In this document: positions 1 through 22,229 of the stretch, one piece after another | Position numbering within the stretch: position 1 is the first letter of the stretch | Layout of the letters: each line of letters begins with the position of its first letter | Assembly: GCF_000698785.1 (NCBI RefSeq) | Contig: NZ_CP007536.1 | Location: forward strand, 1,710,001 to 1,742,000 | Reading direction: 5' to 3' | From: Nitrososphaera viennensis EN76 | Lineage (GTDB): Archaea; Thermoproteota; Nitrososphaeria; Nitrososphaerales; Nitrososphaeraceae | DNA length: 32,000 nucleotides | Notes under the pieces: model-generated | The model's input: the letters and a program-made list of their open reading frames with translations, nothing else | Database searches by the model: none | What the model was told of the DNA's origin: nothing | Made by a program: the position numbers and the translations under genes

Positions 1-2197
1 TTGCAGTGACAAACGTCCTCTGCATCCACTCCGGGATTTCGGCGATGCCTCGCACAGAGCCATAGTTGTTTGCTATCTTGGTCAGTATCTCGTCAGAGTA
101 CAGGCCGTTTTCCTTCAGCACGTTCTCGAACACCTTGTCGGTGTAAAAGAACCTGCCAACAGTAACGCGCTTTTCAAATACAAGCGCAAACACGGGCTCG
201 ACGCCGTTTGCCGTGTCGGCAATCATGGAAAGCGTGCCTGTCGGAGCGATTGTCGACGTCCACGAGTTGCGTATGCCATTCTTCTTTATCTTTTCAATGA
301 GCGTAGCCCAGTCGTACGTGTGCGTCTCTTTTGGCAGCTCGTAATAGCCTGCCACCGGGATTCTGCCCTTGACATAGTCAGTGTCCTTGAACATGGGGAA
401 CGGGCCCCTCGATTTTGCGATCGCCACGGACTCGTCCATGCTCAGATACGACACGGCCTCTGCAAGCTTGTTCATGAACTCATAGCCGTCCTTCGAGTTG
501 TACGGGATGCGGAGAAGGAACAGCAGGTCTGCGATGCCCATGATGCCAAGGCCAATCCTCCTTGTAGCGCGGGTGTTCACCTCTATCTCCTCGACAGGAT
601 ACTTGTTCATGTCGATGATGTTGTCAAGGAACCTCGTGGAGAGCCTTACCGCCTGCTCGTAGCGCTGCCAGTCAAACTCGTACATGCCGTCTGCCTTGCG
701 CTTTACAAAGTTTGCAAGGTTGATGGAGCCCAGGTTGCACGACTCGTACGGGTACAGCGACTGCTCGCCGCACGGGTTTGTGGCGCGCAGCGGCCCGCCC
801 TTTGCCTCTATGCACGGGTTGTACCTGTTGATGTTGTCGAAGAATATGACGCCCGGCTCGGCGCTCTTCCAAGCGGAAAGCGCGATCAGGTCTATCAGCT
901 GCTGCGCGTCGATCTGCCTCATCGGCTCGTGGGTGCGCGGGTTTCTCAGCGTGTATTTGTGGTTTCCGTCCTTGCTGACAAGGGCCTTCCAGAAATCCTC
1001 CCAGATGCCCACCGAGACGTTGAAATTCTCAAAGACGCCCGGCTTGGTCTTGGCCGTGACGAATTTTTCCACGTCGGGGTGCCACGCCTCAAGGATGCCC
1101 ATGTTTGCGCCGCGCCTTTTGCCGCCCTGCTTTACCACGTCGGTGATCGTATCGATTATCCTCATAAAAGACGTCGGCCCGGAAGCGACGCCGGACGTCG
1201 AAGCGACGATGTCGCCCTCCGGCCTCAGGTCCGAGTAGTTGATGCCCACTCCGCCTCCTGACTTGAATATCATCGCCGCGTCAGTCGACGACTTCATTAT
1301 CCTGTTCATGTCGTCGGGCATGTCAAGCACGAAGCACGCCGACAGTTGCCCGAGCCTTGCGCCGGCGTTCATGAGCGTCGGCGTGTTGGGCAAAAAGTCG
1401 CGCGATATCATGAGGTTATAGTATTCCCTTATGCGGTCGCTGTATGTGGCCATCTTGCCCTCTGCCACCAGCCTTAACAATTCTTTAAAGCTGACCTTCA
1501 TCTGGCCCTGCTTTGCGCCGTGGATGTACGAGCGTACCATCGCCTCAAAGTGGTAGCGGTTGAGCCAGTATTCGCCTATCTTTAGCTTCATGTCAAAGTC
1601 GGCAAGCTTGTGGTAGTATTTTGCGGCCTCTTCCGCGTCCTGCACGTGGCCTCCTGCGAGGTTGAACACCTGCGGGTCGTGCATCACGTCTGCGATGCCG
1701 ACAAGGATTGCGACCCTTTCAAACATCTGCTTGGGGCTCTCGACTATCTCGTTGTTTTCGTCGCGCAAAAGGTAACGCGCCGCAAGCACGCGCAGCGAGT
1801 TGATGTCAAAGGCCTTGTCGACCTCGTCCAGGTCCTTCTTGTTCAGGACCTTCATCTTTTCGTCCCTTACCTTCCTGCGCTCGTGCCTGTAGAGTATGTA
1901 GGACTTTGCCGTTTCCGACAGCCCTTCCTCTATCAGTATGGACTCGACCATGTCCTGGACGTCTTCCACTGTGGCGACTGCCTTTTCAGAGCCATAGCCC
2001 TGCTGCGCCATCTTTTGCAGTACCCTTACGCCGAGCCTTTCCGCCAGTGGGTAGTCCGGCTTTCCGGTTGCCACCAGCGCCTTGTAAATCGCGTTTGATA
2101 TCTTGGACTGTTCAAAGCTGACAATGCGTCCGTCCCGCTTTCTGATTTTCGAGATCAGGTTTCCCTGTGAATTATTAAATTCGGTAACTCCCGCCAT
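1..2197 (-). CDS. nrdJ: Class II (adenosylcobalamin-dependent) ribonucleotide reductase with an N-terminal ATP-cone. Partial: the C-terminus lies beyond position 1.
   Basis: Absent from the ORF track because it has no stop inside the window. My reverse-strand translation from the ATG at 2197 is open for 732 codons. It reads MAGVTEFNNSQGNLISKIRKRDGRIVSFEQSKISNAIYKAL (ATP-cone), FLPNTPTLMNAG, SGGGVGINYSDLRPEG, RATNPCGEQSLYPYESCNLGSINL (RNR active-site loop) and TIAPTGTLS. The plus-strand ORFs 320-1261, 684-1238 and 1610-2098 are antisense shadows of this gene. Confidence 0.9.
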   Translation of the reverse strand, partial: MAGVTEFNNSQGNLISKIRKRDGRIVSFEQSKISNAIYKALVATGKPDYPLAERLGVRVLQKMAQQGYGSEKAVATVEDVQDMVESILIEEGLSETAKSYILYRHERRKVRDEKMKVLNKKDLDEVDKAFDINSLRVLAARYLLRDENNEIVESPKQMFERVAILVGIADVMHDPQVFNLAGGHVQDAEEAAKYYHKLADFDMKLKIGEYWLNRYHFEAMVRSYIHGAKQGQMKVSFKELLRLVAEGKMATYSDRIREYYNLMISRDFLPNTPTLMNAGARLGQLSACFVLDMPDDMNRIMKSSTDAAMIFKSGGGVGINYSDLRPEGDIVASTSGVASGPTSFMRIIDTITDVVKQGGKRRGANMGILEAWHPDVEKFVTAKTKPGVFENFNVSVGIWEDFWKALVSKDGNHKYTLRNPRTHEPMRQIDAQQLIDLIALSAWKSAEPGVIFFDNINRYNPCIEAKGGPLRATNPCGEQSLYPYESCNLGSINLANFVKRKADGMYEFDWQRYEQAVRLSTRFLDNIIDMNKYPVEEIEVNTRATRRIGLGIMGIADLLFLLRIPYNSKDGYEFMNKLAEAVSYLSMDESVAIAKSRGPFPMFKDTDYVKGRIPVAGYYELPKETHTYDWATLIEKIKKNGIRNSWTSTIAPTGTLSMIADTANGVEPVFALVFEKRVTVGRFFYTDKVFENVLKENGLYSDEILTKIANNYGSVRGIAEIPEWMQRTFVTA

Positions 2198-2428
2198 CCC
2201 GTCTCTTACCACCAAACCACTCGTACTTATACTCTTTTGTGCTATTTTTACTATCTCGTACATCAGCAAAAATGCACAATTGACTATTAATCCGGGCCGC
2301 GGCGACGAAATCAAACAGAATCGTGTGATATTTCCAAGAAAATCCATGAAACCTTCCGGCAATTTTCCCATGCGCGTATGCTGGCGCAGCCATAAGGTCT
2401 GTAGCTTAACCTCTATCATAAAATTATG

Positions 2429-2464
2429 AAAAAAAGATATGGCGGGCGGCGCAGCTGCGCCGCC
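2429..2464 (-). terminator. Putative terminator of the upstream NrdD-like gene
   Basis: Read on the minus strand just 3' of the stop at 2494. A perfect 20-nt GC palindrome GGCGGCGCAGCTGCGCCGCC (2445-2464) is followed 9 nt later by T7 (plus-strand A7, 2429-2435). Oligo-T tracts are the usual archaeal termination signal. Confidence 0.45.
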
Positions 2465-2493
2465 TTTCCAGATGCGGCGGAAGGCTTGTGCAG

Positions 2494-4629
2494 CTATGCC
2501 GTCGCCAGCATCAGCCGGTGCGGCGACTTGCAGGACTCGCACCTGTCTGCAGATATCTTGTATTTTTTTCCGCACGTTGCGCACACGGCAAGCTTGGCCC
2601 GGGGGCGGAAGAATGCAAGCTCTGCCGCAGAAGCCTCGATTGCGCTCCTGGCTTCGCCGGCGCCAAGGTCGGTGACATCCAAGGCGGCCGCAAGGCCTCC
2701 GTTCAGTATCCTGTCGATGGCAGAGCACTCGGCTACCAGCTGCTTTTTGTCAAGCTCCTTGCCATTTAGCGTCATTCCCTGGGAATAGCTGGCAGTATTC
2801 TGCGACTGGAGGAGCGAGACCTTGCCGTACTTTTCAGAGTCAAGGGCGGCAAAGCGGGCGCCGGAATCGTCAGCTATCATTGCGACGCCGCAAGAGTCCT
2901 CGCCCAGCTGCTTGCCCTGCGCCGCGGCGACCTCGACTGCAGTCTTTAGCACCTTCTGCATCACCTCTGCGCCGCTGTTGGCCTCGTCGTAGCCAAGGAT
3001 GCTAAAGACGGACTCGCGGGCGCCTGTCAGGTTTATGACGATGCTTGAAGTGGCGTGCTGCATAGACTGGGTGGCAACAGAGAACGCGGGGAGGAGCCCG
3101 CGCCTTGCGTTCTCCATGACGGCCTTTTTCCTCATTGCCATCGCCGCAAGCGACGGTTTTATCGCAAGCGCCAGCTTTGCCCGGAAGTAGGTCTCGTCCC
3201 TGTTTGACTCGTAGGCAAGCCTGGGCAGGTTTATCGAAAGCGCCTGGAGCGACATTACAGAAGAAGAAGAGGAATTCTTTGCGCCGGCGGCCTTGCGTAT
3301 CCCGCTTGACGACCTGGCGGCGCTACTATTAATGCTTCCAATCGTTATGATGCCCCCGCTCCTCACCGCCGCTGTGATGTGGTCCAGGCTGTCCTTCAGC
3401 AGCTTGCCTCCGGTGGTTATCGCAAGGCCAGCGCGGGGAACAGGCGTTGCGTCGACGTACCGGCGGTAGCCATCAAGCAGCGCGTTCAGCTGCTTGGCGT
3501 CCATGGCGTCGCCGGGCACCACCAGCGTTGCAAGCGGCTGCTGGCCCGCGCCGGCTGCCGCAGAGGCAGACGACGACGCAAGCGCCCTGGCGAACTTGGC
3601 CGCAAGGTCGTCGGCGTCCTTGGCCCTGGCAAGCGCCGGCGCGACTCCTTCAAGCACGACCTCTGTCGATGCCTCCCTCGAAAGGAGAGCAATGAGGACA
3701 GGAAGGGCTGCAAGCATGTCGTCGGCCGTCTTTATCGACGCCAGCCTTGCCACGGTCGGGTGCCTGCCGGCAAGGTCCAGGCTGCCTCCCTCCATGTCAG
3801 AGAGGTCCACAAACAGCGTGTCAGGCAGGAGGCCCCACGTCCCCGGCTGGGCTATGTGTATCTCGCCGGCAAGGTGCATGTCGGCAATGTCCTTTGGGAG
3901 CGTGTTAAAGATGAGGTATTCTGAAAACACCGAGCCGGCCGTCCTGGCCATTACTCCTGCCGCGCCGCTTCTCGTGGCGTCCTCGCTTGCCAGCATCTCG
4001 GAAATGTCTGACGGCGGGAGGCCGAGGCGCGCAAGCTTGTTTCTGTATTCTTCGTGGCCGTGCTCTATCAATACAGAGTTGACGGTCTCGCGGATGAGCG
4101 ACGACGTCAGGTACGCGGTCTGGAACTTGTAGATCTTGTTTTCCACCTCCTCGGTTATCTTGTGGGCCTGCTCCAGAGGGAGGTTGGCCTCCCTCACCAG
4201 CGACTGTATTATCTTGTGCGAGTTGAACTCCTCTATCGTCTGCCGGCCCGTCCTCACGTACATCTTGCCGCTCTCTATGATAGAGCGCTCCTCGATCTGC
4301 CGGGCAAGGGACAGCACAAGCTTGCCAAGGTTGGTGATAGTGTAGCGGCGTTCGGCCTTGTTCAGCGCGACCAGTAGCTGCCTCAATAGCTTCCTGAGGT
4401 GGTATGCAAACTTGCCCGACTCTTTCTTTGACTTGAAGCCTGCCAGCGCCTTGAGCTCTGAATATGTCAGCGGGCCCTTTGTGTTCAGGATGCGGAGGAT
4501 GTCGATCCTGTTCGGGCTTGCCATGACTGAAAATATCATCCTGACGCGCTTGGATGCCGATTCCAGCACGCCTCCCTTGCGGGACTCTTTTTGCAGTTGA
4601 GAATAGTCAAAACTCGGTTCCGTTTCCAT
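2494..4629 (-). CDS. Winged-helix (ArsR-like) + ATP-cone + anaerobic-RNR (NrdD)-like protein without a glycyl-radical C-terminus; putative nucleotide-sensing regulator
   Basis: 711-aa ORF. The N-terminus SPNRIDILRILNTKGPLTYSELKALAG...YHLRKL is wHTH-like. KMYVRTGRQTIEEFNSHKIIQSL...SLIRETVNSVLIEHGHEEYRNKLARLG is an ATP-cone. LPKDIADMHLAGEIHIAQPG resembles the NrdD N-terminal signature. The protein ends with the ribbon CATCGKKYKISADRCESC and then only 11 more residues (KSPHRLMLATA), with no Gly-radical loop. Confidence 0.8.
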   Translation of the reverse strand: METEPSFDYSQLQKESRKGGVLESASKRVRMIFSVMASPNRIDILRILNTKGPLTYSELKALAGFKSKKESGKFAYHLRKLLRQLLVALNKAERRYTITNLGKLVLSLARQIEERSIIESGKMYVRTGRQTIEEFNSHKIIQSLVREANLPLEQAHKITEEVENKIYKFQTAYLTSSLIRETVNSVLIEHGHEEYRNKLARLGLPPSDISEMLASEDATRSGAAGVMARTAGSVFSEYLIFNTLPKDIADMHLAGEIHIAQPGTWGLLPDTLFVDLSDMEGGSLDLAGRHPTVARLASIKTADDMLAALPVLIALLSREASTEVVLEGVAPALARAKDADDLAAKFARALASSSASAAAGAGQQPLATLVVPGDAMDAKQLNALLDGYRRYVDATPVPRAGLAITTGGKLLKDSLDHITAAVRSGGIITIGSINSSAARSSSGIRKAAGAKNSSSSSVMSLQALSINLPRLAYESNRDETYFRAKLALAIKPSLAAMAMRKKAVMENARRGLLPAFSVATQSMQHATSSIVINLTGARESVFSILGYDEANSGAEVMQKVLKTAVEVAAAQGKQLGEDSCGVAMIADDSGARFAALDSEKYGKVSLLQSQNTASYSQGMTLNGKELDKKQLVAECSAIDRILNGGLAAALDVTDLGAGEARSAIEASAAELAFFRPRAKLAVCATCGKKYKISADRCESCKSPHRLMLATA

Positions 4630-4748
4630 TGCGCCTCATAACCAACATAAATGATTAAAACTCCTTTGTAAAATATTTTTAACTAACAGTACTACTGGCC
4701 CTATGTGGGCCTTTTGACCAAAAGGTCAACCTTTTCAGCCTTGTTCTT

Positions 4749-6185: not shown

Positions 6186-6575
6186 TTACGCCTTCTCAAG
6201 CAGCAGGCCGTGGTGCTGGTCAAAGCCGGCGACCTTTACCTTTGCGCCTACCGGCAGGTCTTTTGGCTCCTTGATGCCGGGAAGGAACCCAGACGCGCGT
6301 ATGTTTGCGTTGTTTATCTTGAACACCACCCACGCGTACGAGCCGGCGTCCTCAAAGCCTGCCGGCGCGACTGCCTGAATAGTGTACGTGACGACCGTGC
6401 CGGCGCCTTCCAGCTCGACGTCCTCGAACTTGCTTGCCGAGCACTTTTCGCAGAACATGACCGTCTCCAGCATGGTGTGGCCGCACTTGGCGCACCTGTG
6501 CGCCAGTATCTTTTTCCTGTTCGCTACCTCGATGAACTTTTCGCGGACTCCGTGTGGTGTATTATTATTGTCCAT
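6186..6575 (-). CDS. DUF35-type OB-fold/zinc-ribbon protein (thiolase-associated scaffold)
   Basis: 129 aa. The zinc ribbon is CAKCGHTMLETVMFCEKC, followed by an OB-fold-like C-terminus (GTVVTYTIQAV...YAWVVFKINNANIRASGFL...GAKVKVAGF). It lies 24 nt downstream of the thiolase gene on the same strand. Confidence 0.85.
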   Translation of the reverse strand: MDNNNTPHGVREKFIEVANRKKILAHRCAKCGHTMLETVMFCEKCSASKFEDVELEGAGTVVTYTIQAVAPAGFEDAGSYAWVVFKINNANIRASGFLPGIKEPKDLPVGAKVKVAGFDQHHGLLLEKA

Positions 6576-6599
6576 TGGCGTATTTTTCCCTCTCTCTTT

Positions 6600-7766
6600 C
6601 TACTTCCTGTCCACTTTTCTGAACAGGTGCACTGCCGCGCTTGCGCCGGTTGCGCCAAAGTTGTGCGTCAGCGCTATTTCCGCGTCTTTTACGGTGCGCT
6701 CGCCTGCCCTGCCGGTGAACTGGTCGAACACCTCGACGACCTGCCCGACGCCGGTTGCGCCGATTGGGTGGCCCTTTGACTTTAGCCCGCCTGACGGGTT
6801 TATCGGGATCTCGCCGTTGAGCCTCGTCGCGCCATCCCTTACCGCGTGGGCCGCCTTGCCCTTGGGGAAAAAGCCGAGGTCCTCGATGTCGATTATTTCA
6901 GCGATTGTAAAGCAGTCGTGCACCTCTGCAAAGTCAATGTCCTTTGGGGTGAGGCCAGCCATCTTGTACGCCGCCCTGGCCGCCGCAACCGTGCTTGGGA
7001 TGGTGGTGATGTCCTCCCTGCCCTGGACGGCTGCCGGAGAGGCGCCACGGCCAGAGCCGATTATCTCGACGTACGGCCTGCCGGACTTTTTGGCAAAGTC
7101 CTCTGAGCAGAGGATGGTTGCGGACGCACCGTCAGAGAACGGGCAGCAGTCCAAGAGTTTCAATGGCGATGCGACCACCGGCGACTTTAACACATCATCG
7201 ACGGTGATCTTTTTCCTCACGTGCGCCTTTGGGTTTAGCACGCCGTTTTCGTGGTTCTTGACTGCCACGTGCGCAAGGTCTTCTTCCGTGGCCTTGTGGG
7301 TCGTCATGTAGGCTCGCGCCATCGACGCAAAGAGCCCGGGGAAAGAGGCGCCGTTTCCGCCCTCGTAGAAAAAGTCAGAGCAGTATGAAAATAGCGTGGT
7401 GCTCTGCGTCGTGCCCGTGTGCGTCACCTTTTCGACGCCGAGCGCAAGGACGCAGTCGTAAAAGCCCGCCGCGACATTGGCGTAGGCTTCCCTGAACATG
7501 ACCGAGCCGGAGCCGCACGCCGACTCTATCGTGAGTCCGGGGACGTGCGATATGCCAAGGTTGCTCATGATGACGGGTGCCATGTGCACCTGCTTGTCGG
7601 CGACACCGAAAACGTTGGAAATGTAGCCGGCCTGGATCTCCTTCGGGGTTATCCCTGCAGACTCGATGGCGTCTTTTGCTGCAGACATGGCGATTTCGAT
7701 GATGCTTTCGTTTAGTTTCCCGTATTTCGTGCTGCCGGCTCCAAGAACGCAAACCTTGTTGGTCAT
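6600..7766 (-). CDS. Thiolase-superfamily protein (acetyl-CoA C-acetyltransferase, archaeal/SCP-x-like type)
   Basis: 388 aa. It shows VCVLGAGSTKYGK at the N-terminus, IESACGSGS (nucleophilic Cys context), a C-terminal THNFGATGASAAVHLF, and GHPIGATGVGQVVE. Confidence 0.9.
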   Translation of the reverse strand: MTNKVCVLGAGSTKYGKLNESIIEIAMSAAKDAIESAGITPKEIQAGYISNVFGVADKQVHMAPVIMSNLGISHVPGLTIESACGSGSVMFREAYANVAAGFYDCVLALGVEKVTHTGTTQSTTLFSYCSDFFYEGGNGASFPGLFASMARAYMTTHKATEEDLAHVAVKNHENGVLNPKAHVRKKITVDDVLKSPVVASPLKLLDCCPFSDGASATILCSEDFAKKSGRPYVEIIGSGRGASPAAVQGREDITTIPSTVAAARAAYKMAGLTPKDIDFAEVHDCFTIAEIIDIEDLGFFPKGKAAHAVRDGATRLNGEIPINPSGGLKSKGHPIGATGVGQVVEVFDQFTGRAGERTVKDAEIALTHNFGATGASAAVHLFRKVDRK

Positions 7767-15547: not shown

Positions 15548-16498
15548 CTACTTGCTGCCGTACAGCTTGTAGATCTTGCCGGTATAGTCGCTGACATAAT
15601 CCCACTTTTCGGGGCTCACCTGCACGGGCGCAAACGCCTTCCTGGCCTCATCGCACAGCGCCTCGTACACGAACTGGCCTACCACTATCTGGTCAGGCTT
15701 GGCGATCCCGGTCATCTTGGCAGTCACGCTTATCGTGTACCCGAGGATGTCAAAATGCGGGTGCCTGACCTGCCGGCCGTCCTCAAGCGTCATCGTGTCC
15801 CACCCGTACTGCACCACGACATTGTCGCCCACGTCGATCCCTACGCGCACGTTCAGCTCGGGATAGTCGTACTGGTTGAGGATCGGGTTTACGCCCTGCC
15901 GCATCACCTTTATCATCGCCTGCGCGCACGACACCGCGTTTGCGCACGGCACGCGCAGGTTGTTCCAGTCGGCAAGAAAGAACGCCAGGATGGCGTCGCC
16001 CACGTATTTCAGCACGTACCCGCCGTAGGCGGAAATAAGGATCGACATTTCCTGCGTGAACGCCTGCACTATGGTGGCAAGCCTGTCAGCCGGGACAGTC
16101 ATCGAAAGTTTGGTTGACCCCACGATGTCGACGTGCAGTATCACAAAGCCCACCTTGGACTTGACGAACTTTTCCAGGATGTTGTTCGTCTCCTCTGTCG
16201 AGAGGTTGAACTGCGGCTCAAAGCGCAGGGCGCGCCATACCCGCTCCTGCGCAAGCCTGACTGCCTGCTCGGTGTCCACCACCTGGCCCAGCTCAAACGA
16301 CGAAAACGACGGCGCCCCGGACGTGGCGTTTGCCGAATCGTGCTTGCGCTCCTCCTCTGCTGCAAACTCGGCTATCGTCCTGTCCACCTGCTCCCTGTCG
16401 ATATCAAGCTGCAGGGCGATGATGTCCGGCTCTATGCCGGAGTTGTAGAGGTTGATTATTATCTGCCGCTGCGAGTCTGGCGTGGCAGGATCAGACAT
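15548..16498 (-). CDS. Class III nucleotidyl cyclase homology-domain protein with a small N-terminal HTH-like domain
   Basis: Cyclase motifs are VGFVILHVDIVGSTKLS, GGYVLKYVGDAILAFF, LNVRVGIDVGDNVVVQYG and FDILGYTISVTAKMTGIAKPDQIVVG. The N-terminus is MSDPATPDSQRQIIINLYNSGIEPDIIALQLDIDREQVDRTIAEF. I set the start at the ATG at 16498 (alternative 16540). The track extension to 16753 is Ser/Arg-rich junk antisense to a better plus-strand small ORF. Confidence 0.8.
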   Translation of the reverse strand: MSDPATPDSQRQIIINLYNSGIEPDIIALQLDIDREQVDRTIAEFAAEEERKHDSANATSGAPSFSSFELGQVVDTEQAVRLAQERVWRALRFEPQFNLSTEETNNILEKFVKSKVGFVILHVDIVGSTKLSMTVPADRLATIVQAFTQEMSILISAYGGYVLKYVGDAILAFFLADWNNLRVPCANAVSCAQAMIKVMRQGVNPILNQYDYPELNVRVGIDVGDNVVVQYGWDTMTLEDGRQVRHPHFDILGYTISVTAKMTGIAKPDQIVVGQFVYEALCDEARKAFAPVQVSPEKWDYVSDYTGKIYKLYGSK

Positions 16499-16589
16499 AT
16501 TTATGCCGCAGCTGAAGCGCAGATCGGCTATTAAACTCATTTGTACGGGCGAGATGATTAATAACGAGTGCCGCGCATATACCGGCGGG

Positions 16590-16772
16590 ATGGGCGGAAA
16601 ACAAAGGGAGGAAGAGCATGTGCTTTTGACGCTTCCAAACATAAAGTACCTGGTGGAGGGCCTGGAGGCGCTCCTGATGACCGACCTGGACGGCGACAAG
16701 CGCGCCAAGGTGATAAAGCTGCGCGACGACCTGGCGTCGTACGTCAACAGCATCTTTAGCGACTATTCATGA
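16590..16772 (+). CDS. Possible small helical protein (60 aa), function unknown
   Basis: This is a sub-ORF of track ORF 16452-16772: MGGKQREEEHVLLTLPNIKYLVEGLEALLMTDLDGDKRAKVIKLRDDLASYVNSIFSDYS. Its composition is protein-like, unlike the opposite-strand reading. The TATA-like GATTAATAA (16553-16561) is centred about 33 nt upstream of the ATG. Confidence 0.4.
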   Translation: MGGKQREEEHVLLTLPNIKYLVEGLEALLMTDLDGDKRAKVIKLRDDLASYVNSIFSDYS

Positions 16773-17124
16773 ACGCGGCGCGCACCTTGCGTATAACCTC
16801 GTTCATCGACAGCGGCTCCTTCTTTATGACGTCGCTCCTGTCAAGCGACCCCATCAGCCGGAGGGTGTCGGCCGTCAGGACCAGCATGAACACAAAGCGC
16901 ACCCTCACGTCGTAGGACCTTATCTCGCGGTACAGGTCGATGCCAGTCATGCCGCCATGCATCACAAGGTCGGTCACGACGACGCCGTACTGCGACCTGC
17001 TTGCGTACTCTAACGCTTTTGAAGGGTCCGGTGTGTGGTCCACTTCATAGCCGTCGGCCGTCAGGTACGTCTTGACCAGCTCGGCGGTCGATTGCTTTTG
17101 GTCGACGAGGAGGACTGACCTCAT
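16756..17124 (-). CDS. Stand-alone CheY-like response-regulator receiver domain
   Basis: 122 aa. It has MRSVLLVDQ (acidic pocket), the phospho-acceptor context VVVTDLVMHGGMTG, LVLTAD (conserved Thr) and VIKKEP (Lys-Pro). Confidence 0.85.
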   Translation of the reverse strand: MRSVLLVDQKQSTAELVKTYLTADGYEVDHTPDPSKALEYASRSQYGVVVTDLVMHGGMTGIDLYREIRSYDVRVRFVFMLVLTADTLRLMGSLDRSDVIKKEPLSMNEVIRKVRAAFMNSR

Positions 17125-19191: not shown

Positions 19192-20685
19192 TTGGTACTG
19201 CAAAGTGAGATTGTAAATGCACTGTCGTACGCCACAAGCAAGGGCTACCAGATCCACCCCGACGCGTTTGCCATGCTAAAGGGGCTTGAAACGGACGTAC
19301 TAAAGGCAGTCCAGGAAATAATCAAGCAGAAAAAGCAGACCAAGATGATAGTGGTCGACGACATCAAGAACGTCGTAAACCCGGGAAGGCAGGAAGAGCT
19401 CGTGCCTGTGGAGCAGATTGCCAAGGTGCTAGTCGACCCGACGCCCAACGTCAACACTGGCGAGGGAGTCGACGGCTATGCGTCGCTGTTCAAGAGCAGG
19501 TTCGAGAAGACGATGCGCATCCTGGCGCAAAGGCCGGACAGTAAGCGCATGACCAAGATCTCCACTGTCAAGCAGATGGGAAAGGGCGCCGGCCCAAGGC
19601 CGGCCGCTGCAGGCGAGCGCAGCCTCGGAAGCGCCGGCACGTACGTCGTGTCGGGCCTCTTGATGTCAAGGCGCACCAAGAAAAACGGCATCGAGCTTGA
19701 GGTTGACGATTACACGGGCAGGCTGCAGGTGACTGCCATGTCGGAAGACGCAAAAAAGCAGGCAGCAAGCCTTGCCCTTGACCAGGTGGTGATGCTAGAG
19801 CTGGAAAACGCAAAGGGGATGCCCGGGCTTGCCATAAAAAATGTCTTTTCGCCGGACATACCGGATCATTTGCCGAACAAGAGCAGGTCAGAAGCGTACG
19901 CGGTATTGATATCGGACCTGCATGTCGGGAGCAAGTATTTCATGCAGCAAGAGTTCTTGCGCTTCCTTGACTGGCTGGCGTCCGGAGACGATGATGACGT
20001 TGTTCGCAAGATAAAATTCCTCTGCATCGGCGGCGATTTAATCGACGGCATCGGCATATTCCCAAATCAGGACAAGGAGCTCCTCATGATGAACGCCGCG
20101 GCCCAGATGGCGTACACCACGAAACTGCTTTCAAAAATCCCAAAGCACATCAAGACGTTCATCATCCCTGGAAACCACGATCCCGGCCGCAGGGCCCTTC
20201 CGCAGCCTATATTTCCCGAGGCAACGTCGGGCGGCCTGTACGGCCTGGAGAACTGCACGATGCTTGGCAACCCCGCGTACGTCGAGCTCAATGGCGTCAA
20301 GGTGTTGATGTTCCACGGCCAGAGCCTCGACGACGTGATTGCTACCACGCCGGGCATGAGCTACCAGCGGCCAGCAGAGGCGATGAAGGTCTTGCTAAAG
20401 GCGCGCCACCTGTCGCCAACGTACGGCGGGCGCACGCCGGTCGCGCCGGAAAGCGAGGACATGATGGTAATGACAGAGATCCCCGACATCTTTCACGCAG
20501 GCCACGTGCACGTGACAGATGTTGATAGTTACCGCGGGACGCTTGTAGTGAATTCCGGCGCGTGGCAGGCGCAGACGAAATTCCAGCAGACGATGGGCAT
20601 AACGCCTTCGCCCGGCATCGCAATCGTCGTCAATCTGGCAACGTTGCAGCCGTTCAAGCAGGATTTCAATCTGATGACGACATAA
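19192..20685 (+). CDS. dp1: DNA polymerase D small subunit (DP1), Mre11-like phosphoesterase/exonuclease
   Basis: 497 aa. The calcineurin-like motifs are AVLISDLHVGSKYF, CIGGDLIDGIG, IIPGNHDP, MFHGQSLDD and FHAGHVHV. The N-terminal domain is typical of DP1. The start is TTG. Confidence 0.92.
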   Translation: MVLQSEIVNALSYATSKGYQIHPDAFAMLKGLETDVLKAVQEIIKQKKQTKMIVVDDIKNVVNPGRQEELVPVEQIAKVLVDPTPNVNTGEGVDGYASLFKSRFEKTMRILAQRPDSKRMTKISTVKQMGKGAGPRPAAAGERSLGSAGTYVVSGLLMSRRTKKNGIELEVDDYTGRLQVTAMSEDAKKQAASLALDQVVMLELENAKGMPGLAIKNVFSPDIPDHLPNKSRSEAYAVLISDLHVGSKYFMQQEFLRFLDWLASGDDDDVVRKIKFLCIGGDLIDGIGIFPNQDKELLMMNAAAQMAYTTKLLSKIPKHIKTFIIPGNHDPGRRALPQPIFPEATSGGLYGLENCTMLGNPAYVELNGVKVLMFHGQSLDDVIATTPGMSYQRPAEAMKVLLKARHLSPTYGGRTPVAPESEDMMVMTEIPDIFHAGHVHVTDVDSYRGTLVVNSGAWQAQTKFQQTMGITPSPGIAIVVNLATLQPFKQDFNLMTT

Positions 20686-21880
20686 GGTCTGAAAACGTCG
20701 GGTCGTCCTTCAGCGCGTCCTTTACCGTTGCAAGCGGCACCGCAACCTTGATCTTTTGCGAGCGGCCGTAGCGCCCCTGGCTCACTATGTCCGTCGACAC
20801 AAGGCCCAGCTGGTCAAGCTCGCTTATTATCTGGGTGACCCTGCGCTGCGTGAGAGGCTCCTGCTCTGCCTGCCTGCACAGCGACGAGTAGACCTCGTAC
20901 ACCTCGCCTGTGTTGCCGTTCTTTGATTTTGTAATGGCAAGCATGACGAACTTTGTGTGCGTCGTGGCATTTTTTATCACTTCGAGGTTTGTGTCCTTCT
21001 CTATCTTTTCCTGCGCGGCCCGCACGTGCTTTTCCTCCACCCTTAAGGCGTGCTCCCGCTCTGCCAGCTCCGCCGCCACGCGCAAGAGGTCGATTGCCTT
21101 GCGGGCGTCGCCGTGCTCCCTGCCGGCCATGGCCGCGCACAAGTTGATTGCGGCGTCTGTGATGGCGCCTTCGCTGAACGCCAGTTTTGCGCGCTCTGAC
21201 AGTATCTGCCGCAGCTGCTCTACCGTGTACGGGTTGAACACCGTCTCTTCCTCGGAAAGGCTGCTTCTCACGCGCGGGTCCAGCTTGTCCTTGAACGTCA
21301 GGCTGTTAGAGATCCCTATCAAACTGACAAAGCCTCCCTTGCCCATGCGCTCATTGGCCCTTGTGAACGAGTAGAGCACGTCGTCGCCGTTTCTGTCCAC
21401 CAGTGAATCTATTTCGTCGATGACAAGTATGACGCGCATTTTTTTGTTTTGTATGAACTGCAGGATGCGGTCTGTTGCTTCGCCCATCGAAAGCCCGGTA
21501 AAGTGGACGACCTTCTTTTCCTCCTTGTTCAGGCCGAGGTGCTCCGCGATTTCAAACAGCATCTTGTAGGCGCTGTTGGCAAGTTTTGCGTTGATTATTG
21601 GAACATCTACGGTGATGCCAAGCGCGCCGGATTTTTTAACAAGCCTGTCGACCACGGTTTTCACGACTGCGGTCTTGCCGGTCCCCGGCTTGCCGAACAG
21701 CAGCAGATTCGACGGCCGTGCTCCCTTGAACACGGTCGACAGCGTCTGCGCAAGCGCGGCTGCTTCCTGGTCGCGGAACGGTAGCTTTTCCGGCACATAA
21801 TCGATGGTGAGCGTCTCCCTTTTTTTGACGAGCGACTTGCCGCTTGCCGCCCTGTCAAATATGTTGTCGATGTCGCTCAT
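20666..21880 (-). CDS. cdc6: Orc1/Cdc6 replication initiator (AAA+ with a C-terminal winged helix)
   Basis: It shows Walker A LLFGKPGTGKTA, Walker B ILVIDEIDSL, sensor and arginine regions, and a C-terminal wH (QRRVTQIISELDQLGLVSTDIVSQGRYGRSQKIKV). I prefer the ATG at 21880 (MSDIDNIFDR) over the track's GTG at 21901. The gene is convergent with dp1 and overlaps its 3' end by 20 nt. Confidence 0.92.
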   Translation of the reverse strand: MSDIDNIFDRAASGKSLVKKRETLTIDYVPEKLPFRDQEAAALAQTLSTVFKGARPSNLLLFGKPGTGKTAVVKTVVDRLVKKSGALGITVDVPIINAKLANSAYKMLFEIAEHLGLNKEEKKVVHFTGLSMGEATDRILQFIQNKKMRVILVIDEIDSLVDRNGDDVLYSFTRANERMGKGGFVSLIGISNSLTFKDKLDPRVRSSLSEEETVFNPYTVEQLRQILSERAKLAFSEGAITDAAINLCAAMAGREHGDARKAIDLLRVAAELAEREHALRVEEKHVRAAQEKIEKDTNLEVIKNATTHTKFVMLAITKSKNGNTGEVYEVYSSLCRQAEQEPLTQRRVTQIISELDQLGLVSTDIVSQGRYGRSQKIKVAVPLATVKDALKDDPTFSDLMSSSD

Positions 21881-22145
21881 CTTTTTGTCGTCCACCCGCA
21901 CCCCTACCTTTCCTTTCCAGAATGCAGGCTTGTTAAGGTTGTCTTAACAGTTACGTTAACAGGGCGTTTTTAAACCGTCAAATCAACTTGTACTAGTTTT
22001 AGTGTCAGCTTGTACAGCCGGTAAACCGGAGTTGATGAGGAGGGCCGTGGACAGGAAAGCAAGGGGTGGCGGCACACACCAGCAACTGTCGTTTATAACA
22101 GCCGGTTAACACTGTCGATCGAACAGGAAGAAAAGGACTCAAAAA

Positions 22146-22167
22146 AGACCCCTTTGTTTCCACTGGA
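22146..22167 (-). repeat. Origin recognition box (ORB) copy 1
   Basis: The plus strand reads AGACCCCTTTGTTTCCACTGGA, so the minus strand reads TCCAGTGGAAACAAAGGGGTCT. This is a dyad core (CCAGTGG) plus GGAAA plus a G-string, as in the ORB elements bound by Orc1/Cdc6 at Sulfolobus and Pyrococcus origins. Confidence 0.7.
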
Positions 22168-22207
22168 GCGTTAAGGTGACGGTTAACGCTGTTAACATGG
22201 GCAAAGT

Positions 22208-22229
22208 AGACCCCTCCATTTCCACTGGA
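22208..22229 (-). repeat. Origin recognition box (ORB) copy 2
   Basis: The plus strand reads AGACCCCTCCATTTCCACTGGA. It is 19/22 identical to copy 1, in the same orientation, and 62 bp away start to start. Confidence 0.7.

Follow-up and report, generated by a model that had tools for sequence, protein, structure and literature searches.

The 711-aa product of a gene in Nitrososphaera viennensis EN76, here named X, combines a winged helix-turn-helix (wHTH), an ATP-cone and a dead NrdD body. Judged by its sequence, X is a paralogue of NrdD, the catalytic subunit of class III ribonucleotide reductase (RNR), that has lost the radical chemistry and gained an ArsR-type winged helix, and on balance we lean towards reading it as a transcription factor that senses nucleotides and governs dNTP supply. 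Since the bacterial-type regulator NrdR is rare in archaea (PMC9110341, PMC12176259), this role is open there. Nothing on the X architecture was found in the literature searched, including the RNR phylogeny and the NrdR papers; the X family is undescribed. The window referred to below is the whole 32-kb stretch of DNA that was analysed.

Domain architecture and spread of X

The gene was assigned from domain profiles, an AlphaFold2 model and matches to solved structures, and its parts are as follows.

2494..4629, (-) strand: gene X, an open reading frame of 711 aa
4312..4536, (-) strand: ArsR-type wHTH, residues 32-106, with recognition-helix motif SGKFAYHLRKL (DUF7347 and HTH_20)
4045..4263, (-) strand: ATP-cone, residues 123-195, with hairpin V125-R126-T-G-R129 (Pfam ATP-cone)
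2590..4014, (-) strand: predicted NrdD-derived alpha/beta barrel without catalytic residues, residues 206-680 (Foldseek and profile against PDB sequences)
3841..3897, (-) strand: NrdD N-terminal signature PKDIADMHLAGEIHIAQPG, residues 245-263
2530..2583, (-) strand: Cys4 zinc ribbon CxxC-x10-CxxC, residues 683-700 (Cys 683, 686, 697 and 700)
2494..2529, (-) strand: 11-residue tail KSPHRLMLATA and stop codon, in the place of the glycyl-radical domain

An earlier note on this DNA had read four parts in the protein, and translation and Pfam profiles confirmed their order: ArsR-type winged helix, ATP-cone, NrdD-like body and C-terminal Cys4 ribbon. The three profiles that it had proposed to search (ATP-cone, NRDD and HTH_20) all scored above their Pfam cut-offs. 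HTH_20 matched residues 36-88 (E 1.8e-7; 31.5 bits against a cut-off of 27), the ATP-cone PF03477 matched residues 123-195 (E 6.3e-11; 43.1 bits against 25.8), and NRDD matched in two stretches, the best being 451-703 (E 2.8e-15). DUF7347 matched residues 32-106 (E 2.3e-10), likewise above its cut-off.

X had been treated as a local oddity; it is in fact one of a very large family that spans the TACK and Asgard archaea. There were 1011 X-family clusters at E<1e-3, and members were found in Nitrososphaeria, Aigarchaeota, Bathyarchaeia, Thermoprotei, Methanomethylicia and Asgard archaea. An intact reading frame was found in 80 genomes and hundreds of metagenome clusters. For X as a whole dN/dS was 0.10-0.19; it fell to 0.00-0.03 in the winged helix and to 0.00-0.07 in the ATP-cone. 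X is under strong purifying selection, strongest in these two domains, and the sequences point to a functional gene and not a relic.

A predicted NrdD barrel without an active site

The AlphaFold2 model of X (pLDDT 89.6, pTM 0.83), a prediction that the earlier note had called for, folds as NrdD, with a complete class III RNR barrel. The best 35 Foldseek matches were all NrdD structures, with E down to 4.6e-17. They included TmNrdD (4col), T4 NrdD (1hk8), StNrdD (9dca) and PcNrdD (8p2s), and the TM scores against TmNrdD and T4 NrdD were 0.60-0.66. The family profile searched against PDB sequences reached StNrdD at 3.3e-39. The model thus predicts the ten-stranded alpha/beta barrel and the Cys4 ribbon that define NrdD. 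The middle of the protein had been described as degenerating into Ala/Ser-rich low-complexity inserts. That region was modelled as part of the barrel, with pLDDT mostly above 85 but falling to 72-80 around residues 351-360 and 451-460, and its dN/dS of 0.20-0.41 indicates purifying selection. Its Ala/Ser richness coincides with a G+C content of 62% at 3001-4000, compared with about 55% for the whole window.

Several NrdD features are retained. The signature PKDIADMHLAGEIHIAQPG of X aligns with MPEHIADAHMSGLIHIHDLEYW of a catalytic archaeal NrdD, and D250, H252 and G255 within it are invariant or nearly so among 62 sequences. The Asn of INLPR is invariant in the family and the R592/D597/G602 motif nearly so. 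The ribbon aligns with its counterpart in catalytic NrdD, which marks it as an inheritance from NrdD, and 55-56 of the 63 family members have it. Its spacing is CxxC-x10-CxxC, not the CxxC-x9-CxxC given before.

The catalytic residues are missing. The finger-loop QCCR, which carries the thiyl-radical Cys, falls in a 5-residue deletion in 63/63 family members, X included, and in the profile alignment the Cys loops of TmNrdD and StNrdD are insertions relative to the X family. Pairwise phmmer alignment with TmNrdD would put the Cys loop at residues 420-423 of X, while the profile and MAFFT alignments, which were preferred, put it in the deletion near residues 433-443; neither placement has a Cys in X. 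The second active-site Cys, on the top face of the barrel (HCAGGQG in archaeal NrdD), is Ala in X and V/A/I/L/T in 62 of the 63 members. Catalytic NrdD paralogues carry the radical Gly within SRVTGYY or SRITGYY, 13-15 residues past the last ribbon Cys, and continue for about 25 residues beyond it. X has 11 residues after Cys700, with neither a Gly nor an RVxGY motif. The Gly column is truncated in 29 of the 63 members and mostly non-Gly in the rest. As the QCCR is deleted, the top Cys replaced and the glycyl-radical domain cut off, X cannot be an enzyme. The same conclusion had been drawn earlier from the ribbon ending 11 residues before the stop, a tail that is Gly-free and indeed leaves no room for the radical loop; the deleted Cys loop and the replaced second Cys now strengthen it, there being no thiyl Cys in any of the 63 members examined.

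The winged helix and the ATP-cone are the persistent module

In the winged helix, 62 sequences show no variation at G72, F74 and H77 and hardly any at K73, Y76 and L78. The NCBIfam HTH_metalloreg subfamily scored 21.9 against a cut-off of 55. The alpha3 or alpha5 Cys/His ligands of an ArsR/SmtB metal site were not found in X; all of its Cys are at residues 580, 635, 683, 686, 697 and 700, with none in 1-579. The sensor of X is presumably the cone together with the barrel.

In the ATP-cone, V125, F135 and I140 are invariant and R126, S128 and E133 nearly so (62 sequences). R126, R196 and R201 are nearly invariant, and at position 129, where X has R, most members have R/K. A VR(T/K)SK hairpin and the Arg residues of the last helix are common to the X cone and catalytic NrdD paralogues. 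The profile match and these basic residues, suited to a triphosphate, suggest a genuine PF03477 cone. The hairpin of X itself reads VRTGR, where the canonical form is KRDG, a difference that was counted against the sensor reading.

Members from Aigarchaeota, of 526-605 aa, keep the wHTH and the cone, whereas NRDD scores below the Pfam cut-off. In these most degenerate relatives, the two domains are the only parts still intact, indicating from sequence comparison that the wHTH and ATP-cone are the persistent module of the family.

Gene neighbourhood and promoters of X

The elements around X in the window are listed below.

1..2197, (-) strand: nrdJ-type RNR gene (ATP-cone, all-alpha domain and barrel), cut by the window edge
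2198..2493, (-) strand: X-nrdJ intergenic region
2445-2464: GC hairpin, 3' of the X stop (RNA fold)
2429-2435: U7 run, 3' of the X stop (spacer sequence)
2225-2240: BRE/TATA-like ACAAAAGAGTATAAGT, ahead of nrdJ (motif in the spacer)
4646..4691, (-) strand: nearly invariant promoter block TACTGTTAGTTAAAAATATTTTACAAAGGAGTTTTAATCATTTATG, upstream of X
within 4646..4691, (-) strand: TATA-like TTTTAATCA, about 22 nt before the X ATG

As the earlier note had it, X lies head-to-tail upstream of nrdJ, which has its own ATP-cone. The gene lies 296 bp downstream on the same strand, and its profile matches (ATP-cone 7e-19, Ribonuc_red_lgN 1.4e-23, Ribonuc_red_lgC 3.8e-131) are those of a class II-type RNR. 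The synteny proposed for checking was found in part. A nrdJ gene adjoins X in most Nitrososphaera loci and, more widely, in Nitrososphaerales, Nitrosocaldus and one deep thaumarchaeon, a convergent RNR adjoins it in Conexivisphaerales, nrdD in Bathyarchaeota and one unassigned contig, and dcd (dCTP deaminase) in Thermoprotei, at gaps of 17 bp and 97 bp. On the other hand, no RNR or dcd neighbour was found on five distant contigs (Lokiarchaeia, Verstraetearchaeota and three others examined) or at about ten Nitrososphaeraceae loci. Moreover, the whole neighbourhood is syntenic in Nitrososphaerales, so the local X-nrdJ linkage alone says little. The genes flanking X are cdvB and nrdJ, and some 18 kb away lie orc1/cdc6, with ORB-like repeats, and the PolD genes. 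Its ancient neighbourhood is unrelated to nucleotides, with thiolase-DUF35 upstream and NAC-PUA-TFE downstream; the orders thiolase-DUF35-X and X-NAC-PUA-...-TFE are kept from Asgard to TACK. Where nrdD is the neighbour, the pairing could date from the tandem duplication that gave rise to X. Neither an NrdG radical-SAM activase nor an NrdD partner was found in the 32-kb window.

The hairpin and U7 run after the X stop and the BRE/TATA-like element before nrdJ suggest that X and nrdJ are probably separate transcription units. A riboswitch or other RNA in the long spacer was considered and rejected, as Rfam gave no match there at E<=1. Upstream of X, most columns of the promoter block are >=90% identical over 75 loci, where the proteins are only 55-100% identical. 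The block is almost invariant across the ammonia-oxidising orders and recognisable in Nitrosocaldus and Nitrosomirales, and its exact core occurs once per locus, always ahead of X. Such near-invariance is as expected for a tightly, perhaps auto-regulated gene.

Weight matrices of 23, 35 and 10 nt from the block were scanned over the nrdJ upstream regions of 60 loci, with random 200-nt windows from the same loci for comparison. No X-block site was enriched upstream of nrdJ beyond AT-richness (median empirical p 0.06-0.34), and no operator common to the two promoters was found. The similarity ACAAARGAGTWTWART between the X and nrdJ promoters, picked out by eye in this window, is largely BRE/TATA and lacks conservation. 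In metagenomes, 46 of 120 motif matches lay directly upstream of X and about five more at contig ends adjoining cdvB; the remaining matches were AT-rich chance or fell inside one unrelated conserved coding sequence. The core was elsewhere found only in unrelated sequence, and the motif search revealed no regulon of X.

Proposed function and mechanism

In catalytic NrdD, dATP pairs the cones and ATP separates them (StNrdD, PMC12662201; PcNrdD, PMC11226230). X may likewise dimerise and bind ATP or dATP through its cone. In the model, each winged helix is joined to its cone by one long helix (residues 100-120); as this helix would couple the two domains, repositioning of the cones would move the two DNA-reading heads together or apart. 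The dATP/ATP ratio could in this way switch DNA binding, with the adjacent nrdJ and the deeply conserved promoter of X itself as likely targets. The NrdR-like regulator put forward in the earlier note gains from the wHTH and cone being most constrained and kept in Aigarchaeota and from neighbours that are nrdJ, nrdD or dcd; the missing operator common to X and nrdJ and the patchy linkage count against it.

A wider version, which we regard as tentative and rather improbable, makes X the missing master regulator through which TACK and Asgard archaea would control dNTP synthesis, working as a multi-input sensor. The cone would read the dATP/ATP ratio. The former substrate and specificity sites of the dead barrel, which retains the INLPR Asn and the R592/D597/G602 motif, may still bind (d)NTPs. 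Transcription of RNR, dcd and X itself would then follow how large and how balanced the entire dNTP pool is.

Alternative explanations

X may sense nucleotides and bind DNA, and yet act mainly on genes other than RNR, for instance on those of replication or the cell cycle, or on X alone. Its adjacency to RNR or dcd would then reflect history, left over from the nrdD duplication and from an old conserved neighbourhood. The lack of a common operator, the loci without linkage (five distant contigs and part of Nitrososphaeraceae), the position between cdvB and nrdJ near orc1/cdc6 and PolD, and the gene orders conserved from Asgard to TACK all agree with this. However, the slot after X is filled by three different dNTP genes (nrdJ, nrdD and dcd) across lineages, which an inherited duplication does not explain; we consider a non-RNR regulon possible but unlikely. 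More doubtful still is that X does not bind DNA and is a non-catalytic, nucleotide-binding partner or scaffold modulating RNR or another enzyme, its winged helix being a protein-interaction or dimerisation module. A complete barrel and zinc ribbon retained under selection would suit such a role, and the conserved INLPR Asn and R592/D597/G602 hint at a retained ligand or partner surface. But X is most constrained in its wHTH, whose recognition helix is typical of ArsR, the barrel decays in Aigarchaeota while the wHTH and cone stay, and the RNR beside X in these aerobic ammonia oxidisers is of class II type, with no NrdD partner in the window.

Two further explanations were rejected and have next to no probability. 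Database naming and the NRDD match above the Pfam cut-off speak for a genuine, divergent anaerobic RNR, but X lacks the thiyl Cys, the second active-site Cys and the glycyl-radical domain, scores 47.6 bits with the NCBIfam NrdD equivalog TIGR02487 against a cut-off of 326.35, and has no radical-SAM activase in the window, while Bathyarchaeota hold a real NrdD with all motifs right beside X. That the gene is a decaying pseudogene or an assembly or annotation fusion artefact, as its Ala/Ser-rich stretches and truncated C-terminus might suggest, is refuted by the intact reading frames, the low dN/dS and the confident full-length model. The reading that we prefer remains a nucleotide-sensing transcription factor for dNTP supply.

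Comparison with known systems

X and NrdR have in common a DNA-binding module fused directly to an ATP-cone (residues 32-106 and 123-195 in X) and a gene that often adjoins RNR genes. In NrdR, the ATP/dATP load of the cone sets the oligomeric arrangement and so DNA binding (PMC9110341, PMC12176259), and by analogy the same logic would be expected in X. However, NrdR binds DNA with an N-terminal Zn ribbon, whereas X has an ArsR-type winged helix there and its sole Zn ribbon is C-terminal and NrdD-derived. X also carries a whole dead RNR barrel of about 500 aa, has a cone derived from NrdD and not NrdR, lacks NrdR boxes, and is archaeal (TACK and Asgard) and known from sequence alone. Most likely, X resembles NrdR in function and is built from different parts, an analogue and not a homologue.

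Like class III NrdD (StNrdD 9dca, PcNrdD 8p2s, TmNrdD 4col, T4 NrdD 1hk8), X has an ATP-cone, a predicted ten-stranded barrel and a C-terminal Cys4 ribbon, and by sequence it is closest to archaeal NrdDs, some of them products of the adjacent gene. It differs by the extra N-terminal wHTH and by the loss of the Cys loop, the top-face Cys and the glycyl-radical domain. With ArsR/SmtB proteins (HTH_20 / HTH_5; DUF7347), X shares a wHTH with an xxHLxxL recognition helix. Those proteins are metal-sensing dimers of about 100-120 aa, whereas the wHTH is one sixth of the 711-aa X, whose sensor would by analogy be a nucleotide-binding domain. In trigger enzymes and pseudoenzyme sensors such as BirA, PutA and NadR, an enzyme fold is reused as the ligand sensor of a DNA-binding protein. 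Such examples mostly keep catalysis, whereas X retains none of the chemistry and descends from RNR itself.

Significance

For the control of RNR transcription in archaea, where NrdR is rare, the X family offers a concrete and widespread candidate, one that ammonia oxidisers in culture, N. gargensis among them, possess. Most database records, hundreds of them, name these proteins "anaerobic ribonucleoside-triphosphate reductase"; this name wrongly credits aerobic ammonia-oxidising archaea with making dNTPs anaerobically and would mislead metabolic reconstructions. If the proposed function is true, an essential allosteric enzyme was converted to an allosteric transcription factor that reuses the cone movement of NrdD, and an RNR was turned into a regulator of RNR by an evolutionary route independent of bacterial NrdR. 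As the family is also found in Asgard archaea, it could bear on dNTP control in the lineage ancestral to eukaryotes.

Domain composition and loss of catalytic residues

The domains of X, the 711-aa winged-helix (wHTH), ATP-cone and NrdD-like protein, and the RNR gene beside it were located as follows.

2494-4629, (-): X, open reading frame, 711 aa
X residues 32-106: ArsR-type winged helix, DUF7347 (Pfam E 2.3e-10)
X residues 36-88: winged helix, HTH_20 (Pfam, score above the HTH_20 cut-off)
X residues 123-195: ATP-cone (Pfam E 6.3e-11)
X, two stretches: NRDD (Pfam E 2.8e-15)
X residues 245-263: signature PKDIADMHLAGEIHIAQPG
1-2197, (-), same strand as X, downstream: class II-type RNR (nrdJ) with its own ATP-cone, truncated by the window edge

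The earlier note had divided X into four parts, and this layout was recovered: the Pfam winged helix, ATP-cone and NRDD matches are followed by a Cys ribbon near the end. The ribbon reads CxxC-x10-CxxC, correcting the x9 spacing given there, with 11 Gly-less residues after it to the C-terminus; the only cysteines are at positions 580, 635, 683, 686, 697 and 700. The RNR with its own ATP-cone lies where the note had placed nrdJ. The gene upstream of X encodes a CdvB/Snf7 homolog, and the window, part of a Nitrososphaera chromosome, also holds topoisomerase, UDG, TFE, PolD DP1 and DP2, and orc1/cdc6 genes. No radical-SAM or NrdG gene was found in the 32-kb window. The G+C content of the mid-X gene (window 3001-4000) is 62% versus ~55% for the whole window, which goes with the Ala/Gly/Ser-rich composition of this part.

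The AlphaFold2 model of X, built from an input alignment of 62 sequences, was confident (mean pLDDT 89.6, pTM 0.83). This included the Ala/Ser-rich middle, previously read as degenerate inserts. The top Foldseek matches in the PDB were class III RNRs only, namely NrdD of S. thermophilus (StNrdD; 9dca, E 4.6e-17), T. maritima (4col, TM 0.62-0.64), T4 (1hk8, TM 0.66) and P. copri (8p2s). By sequence, the X-family profile matched StNrdD at 3.3e-39 (profile positions 221-693), and the NCBIfam NrdD equivalog scored 47.6 bits on X, against a cut-off of 326.

Because a catalytic nrdD gene adjoins the X homolog in Bathyarchaeota, close catalytic paralogs were to hand and were used as comparators. Their motifs in the alignment are 'HCAGGQG', 'QCCR' and 'SR(V/I)TGYY'. 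'QCCR' is a five-residue deletion in all X-family sequences aligned (63/63), and the first Cys (the 'HCAGGQG' position) is V/A/I/L/T in 62/63. The radical Gly column is truncated in 29, all of the Nitrososphaeria type, and mostly non-Gly in the remainder. The four ribbon Cys are retained in 55-56/63 and the Asn of 'INLPR' in 63/63. X residues 1-579 contain zero Cys, so the conclusion of lost chemistry holds whatever the alignment details. Judged from its sequence, X cannot perform radical ribonucleotide reduction; the absence of Cys from this stretch, the deleted 'QCCR' and the missing Gly region all bear out the earlier view that it is no working glycyl-radical enzyme. X is homologous to NrdD, but falls outside it in each test of the catalytic motifs. 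In X the NrdD body is whole yet catalytically dead.

Selection and conserved residues

The dN/dS of the X gene was estimated against eight orthologs (Nei-Gojobori). The value was 0.10-0.19 for the whole protein, 0.00-0.03 for the winged helix, 0.00-0.07 for the ATP-cone, 0.08-0.24 for the N-terminal NrdD part, 0.20-0.41 for the middle, 0.10-0.22 for the C-terminal barrel and 0.16-0.48 for the ribbon plus tail. X is functional, and its N-terminal third (winged helix and ATP-cone) matters most. Among 62 diverse members, the invariant or nearly invariant residues form three clusters: the recognition helix (G72, K73, F74, Y76, H77, L78), the cone (V125, R126, S128, E133, F135, I140 ... Y195, R196, R201) and a small number of motifs in the barrel. 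The cone hairpin VR(T/K)S(K/R) and the Arg residues of the last helix are identical in the X family and the catalytic archaeal NrdD paralogs, indicating that the cone of X is no more degenerate than that of working enzymes.

Extent of the family

At E<1e-3 an exhaustive HMMER search returned 1011 cluster representatives, of which 161 passed E<1e-30. Members were named in Nitrososphaerales (including N. gargensis Ga9.2), Nitrosocaldus, Conexivisphaerales, Aigarchaeota (Caldarchaeum, HR01, Geocrenenecus), Bathyarchaeia, Thermoprotei, Methanomethylicia/Verstraetearchaeota and Asgard archaea (Lokiarchaeia, Freyarchaeota, Jordarchaeum). They are called 'anaerobic ribonucleoside-triphosphate reductase', 'ArsR family transcriptional regulator', 'helix-turn-helix domain-containing protein' or 'hypothetical' in databases. 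A vestigial, mostly Gly-less glycyl-radical domain persists in the 740-800-aa forms of Bathyarchaeia, Thermoprotei and Asgard archaea, the Nitrososphaeria forms end directly after the ribbon, and in the Aigarchaeota forms (526-605 aa) wHTH and ATP-cone are clear and the NrdD part is below the Pfam cut-off. This stepwise decay of the enzyme part indicates that the constant module of the family is wHTH plus ATP-cone.

Gene neighborhood

The order topo-thiolase-DUF35-cdvB-X-nrdJ is mostly kept in 80 species-level Nitrososphaerales genomes, and ~10 loci with sufficient flank have no nrdJ after X. Since the whole region is syntenic across Nitrososphaerales, the local X-nrdJ linkage alone is weak evidence, and distant lineages are more telling.

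Genes beside X in distant lineages
Nitrosocaldus: class II-type RNR, same strand, 67-bp gap
Deep thaumarchaeon: class II RNR, same strand
Conexivisphaerales: RNR, convergent, 5 bp apart
Bathyarchaeota and contig L087: catalytic nrdD; in one, nrdD then a thioredoxin-like gene
Two Thermoprotei-type contigs: dCTP deaminase/dUTPase, 97-bp and 17-bp gaps

No dNTP gene was found beside X in Lokiarchaeia, Verstraetearchaeota and three other contigs. The synteny with nrdJ stands for most Nitrososphaerales, Nitrosocaldus and the deep thaumarchaeon, and fails in the ~10 loci and several distant lineages. The slot is taken by three different dNTP-supply genes across lineages, which simple inheritance fails to explain. 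The association of X with dNTP-supply genes is recurrent, not universal.

An old neighborhood, HMG-CoA synthase/thiolase/DUF35 upstream and NAC-PUA-...-TFE downstream, extends from Asgard to TACK. The mevalonate-pathway pair thiolase + DUF35/ChsH2 (window 6186-7766; loci L093, L094, L096, L097) is immediately upstream of X homologs in Lokiarchaeia, Verstraetearchaeota and contig L097, preceded by HMG-CoA synthase in the first two, and lies a few genes upstream in Nitrososphaera and Nitrosocaldus. This synteny is unusually old and without obvious nucleotide link. X is also associated, though more loosely, with nucleotide synthesis through pyrB and pyrI (aspartate carbamoyltransferase), which lie downstream of it within a few kb in L087 (X then nrdD), L095 and L096 (Nitrosocaldus).

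Promoter and spacers

The 119-bp cdvB-X spacer holds a conserved block of ~45 nt (window 4646-4691), with most columns at least 90% identical across 75 loci whose proteins there are only 55-100% identical. It occurs once per locus, always before X, and is recognizable in Nitrosocaldus and Nitrosomirales as TTTTACAnAGTnnnTTTAAT. Its 3' part, ~22 nt before the ATG, is BRE/TATA-like, as in other window promoters. A GC hairpin and U7 run follow the X stop, indicating that the X and nrdJ transcripts are probably separate. No site common to the X and nrdJ promoters was found, and the spacers matched no Rfam family. The examined loci held no further copies of the motif, and the copies in metagenome contigs stood either before X or in unrelated sequence.

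At 240-300 bp in most Nitrososphaera loci, and 878 bp at most (locus L018), the X-nrdJ spacer (window 2198-2493) is a long one by the standard of this genome; it has no conserved ORF and a poorly conserved 5' half. Two palindromes lie just 3' of the cdvB stop.

4714-4729, (-): hairpin/palindrome TTGACC-TTTT-GGTCAA
4696-4710, (-): hairpin/palindrome GGCCC-ACATA-GGGCC

In other loci the loop of the former flips from TTTT to AAAA, with apparently compensatory stem changes (TCGACC...GGTCGA/AGTCGA); it could terminate cdvB transcription or be bound by a protein ahead of the X promoter. The 19-nt promoter core also occurs within conserved coding sequence (…VNCFTKKF…-like frame; ORFs of 143-225 aa) on G+C-rich soil metagenome contigs unrelated to X (L119, L133, L137, L148, L151, L168, L177, L183, L200, L216), which looks like coincidence.

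Other features of the window

20666-21880, (-): orc1/cdc6
22140-22167 and 22202-22229, intergenic: two 28-nt direct repeats upstream of orc1/cdc6, 62 nt apart
16756-17124, (-): response-regulator receiver
15548-16753, (-): adenylate/guanylate cyclase catalytic domain, directly downstream of the receiver gene

The repeats follow the pattern CAAA..AGACCCC....TTTCCACTGGA, and their 3' part reads, on the opposite strand, as the core of the archaeal origin recognition box (TCCAGTGGAAA). The region is probably the replication origin, ~18 kb from X and nrdJ. The receiver and cyclase genes may form a cyclic-nucleotide signaling pair in this ammonia-oxidizing archaeon.

Proposed function of X

The cones of catalytic class III RNRs are positioned differently with ATP than with dATP, and dATP brings them into pairs (PMC12662201, PMC11226230). 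DNA binding by NrdR depends on its oligomer, which is set by the ATP/dATP load of the cone (PMC9110341). In the AlphaFold2 model of X, a single long helix (residues 100-120) joins the wHTH to the cone. We propose that X would dimerize as NrdD does, and that repositioning of the cones would alter how the two wHTHs are placed relative to each other, so that DNA binding would follow the dATP/ATP ratio. X would then control nrdJ (nrdD or dcd in other lineages) and probably also its own gene. With the 'INLPR' Asn and R592/D597/G602 motif retained, the former substrate or specificity sites may still bind nucleotides.

With dNTP-supply genes recurring beside it, we consider it reasonably probable that X is a nucleotide-sensing regulator of such genes. 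A regulator working as proposed on a different regulon seems rather unlikely; the nrdJ-less loci and the lack of a common site in the X and nrdJ promoters stand on its side, and the repeated RNR, nrdD and dCTP deaminase/dUTPase neighbors on the other. A role without DNA binding would fit the complete NrdD barrel and ribbon kept under selection, and with the recognition helix nearly invariant it appears quite improbable.

As a candidate regulator of dNTP-supply genes, X would fall among the ATP-cone-based RNR regulators. It shares with NrdR the logic of a DNA-binding domain plus ATP-cone (Zn ribbon in NrdR, wHTH in X), and by analogy its mode of action may be NrdR-like. However, X lies outside the NrdR family, with another DNA-binding domain, a cone of other origin and a dead RNR body. 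On archaea, NrdR reviews say no more than that NrdR is rare there (PMC9110341, PMC12176259), and no description of the X architecture was found in the literature searched. These results set right a widespread misannotation of the family and make X relevant to specialists in RNR and in archaeal transcription.
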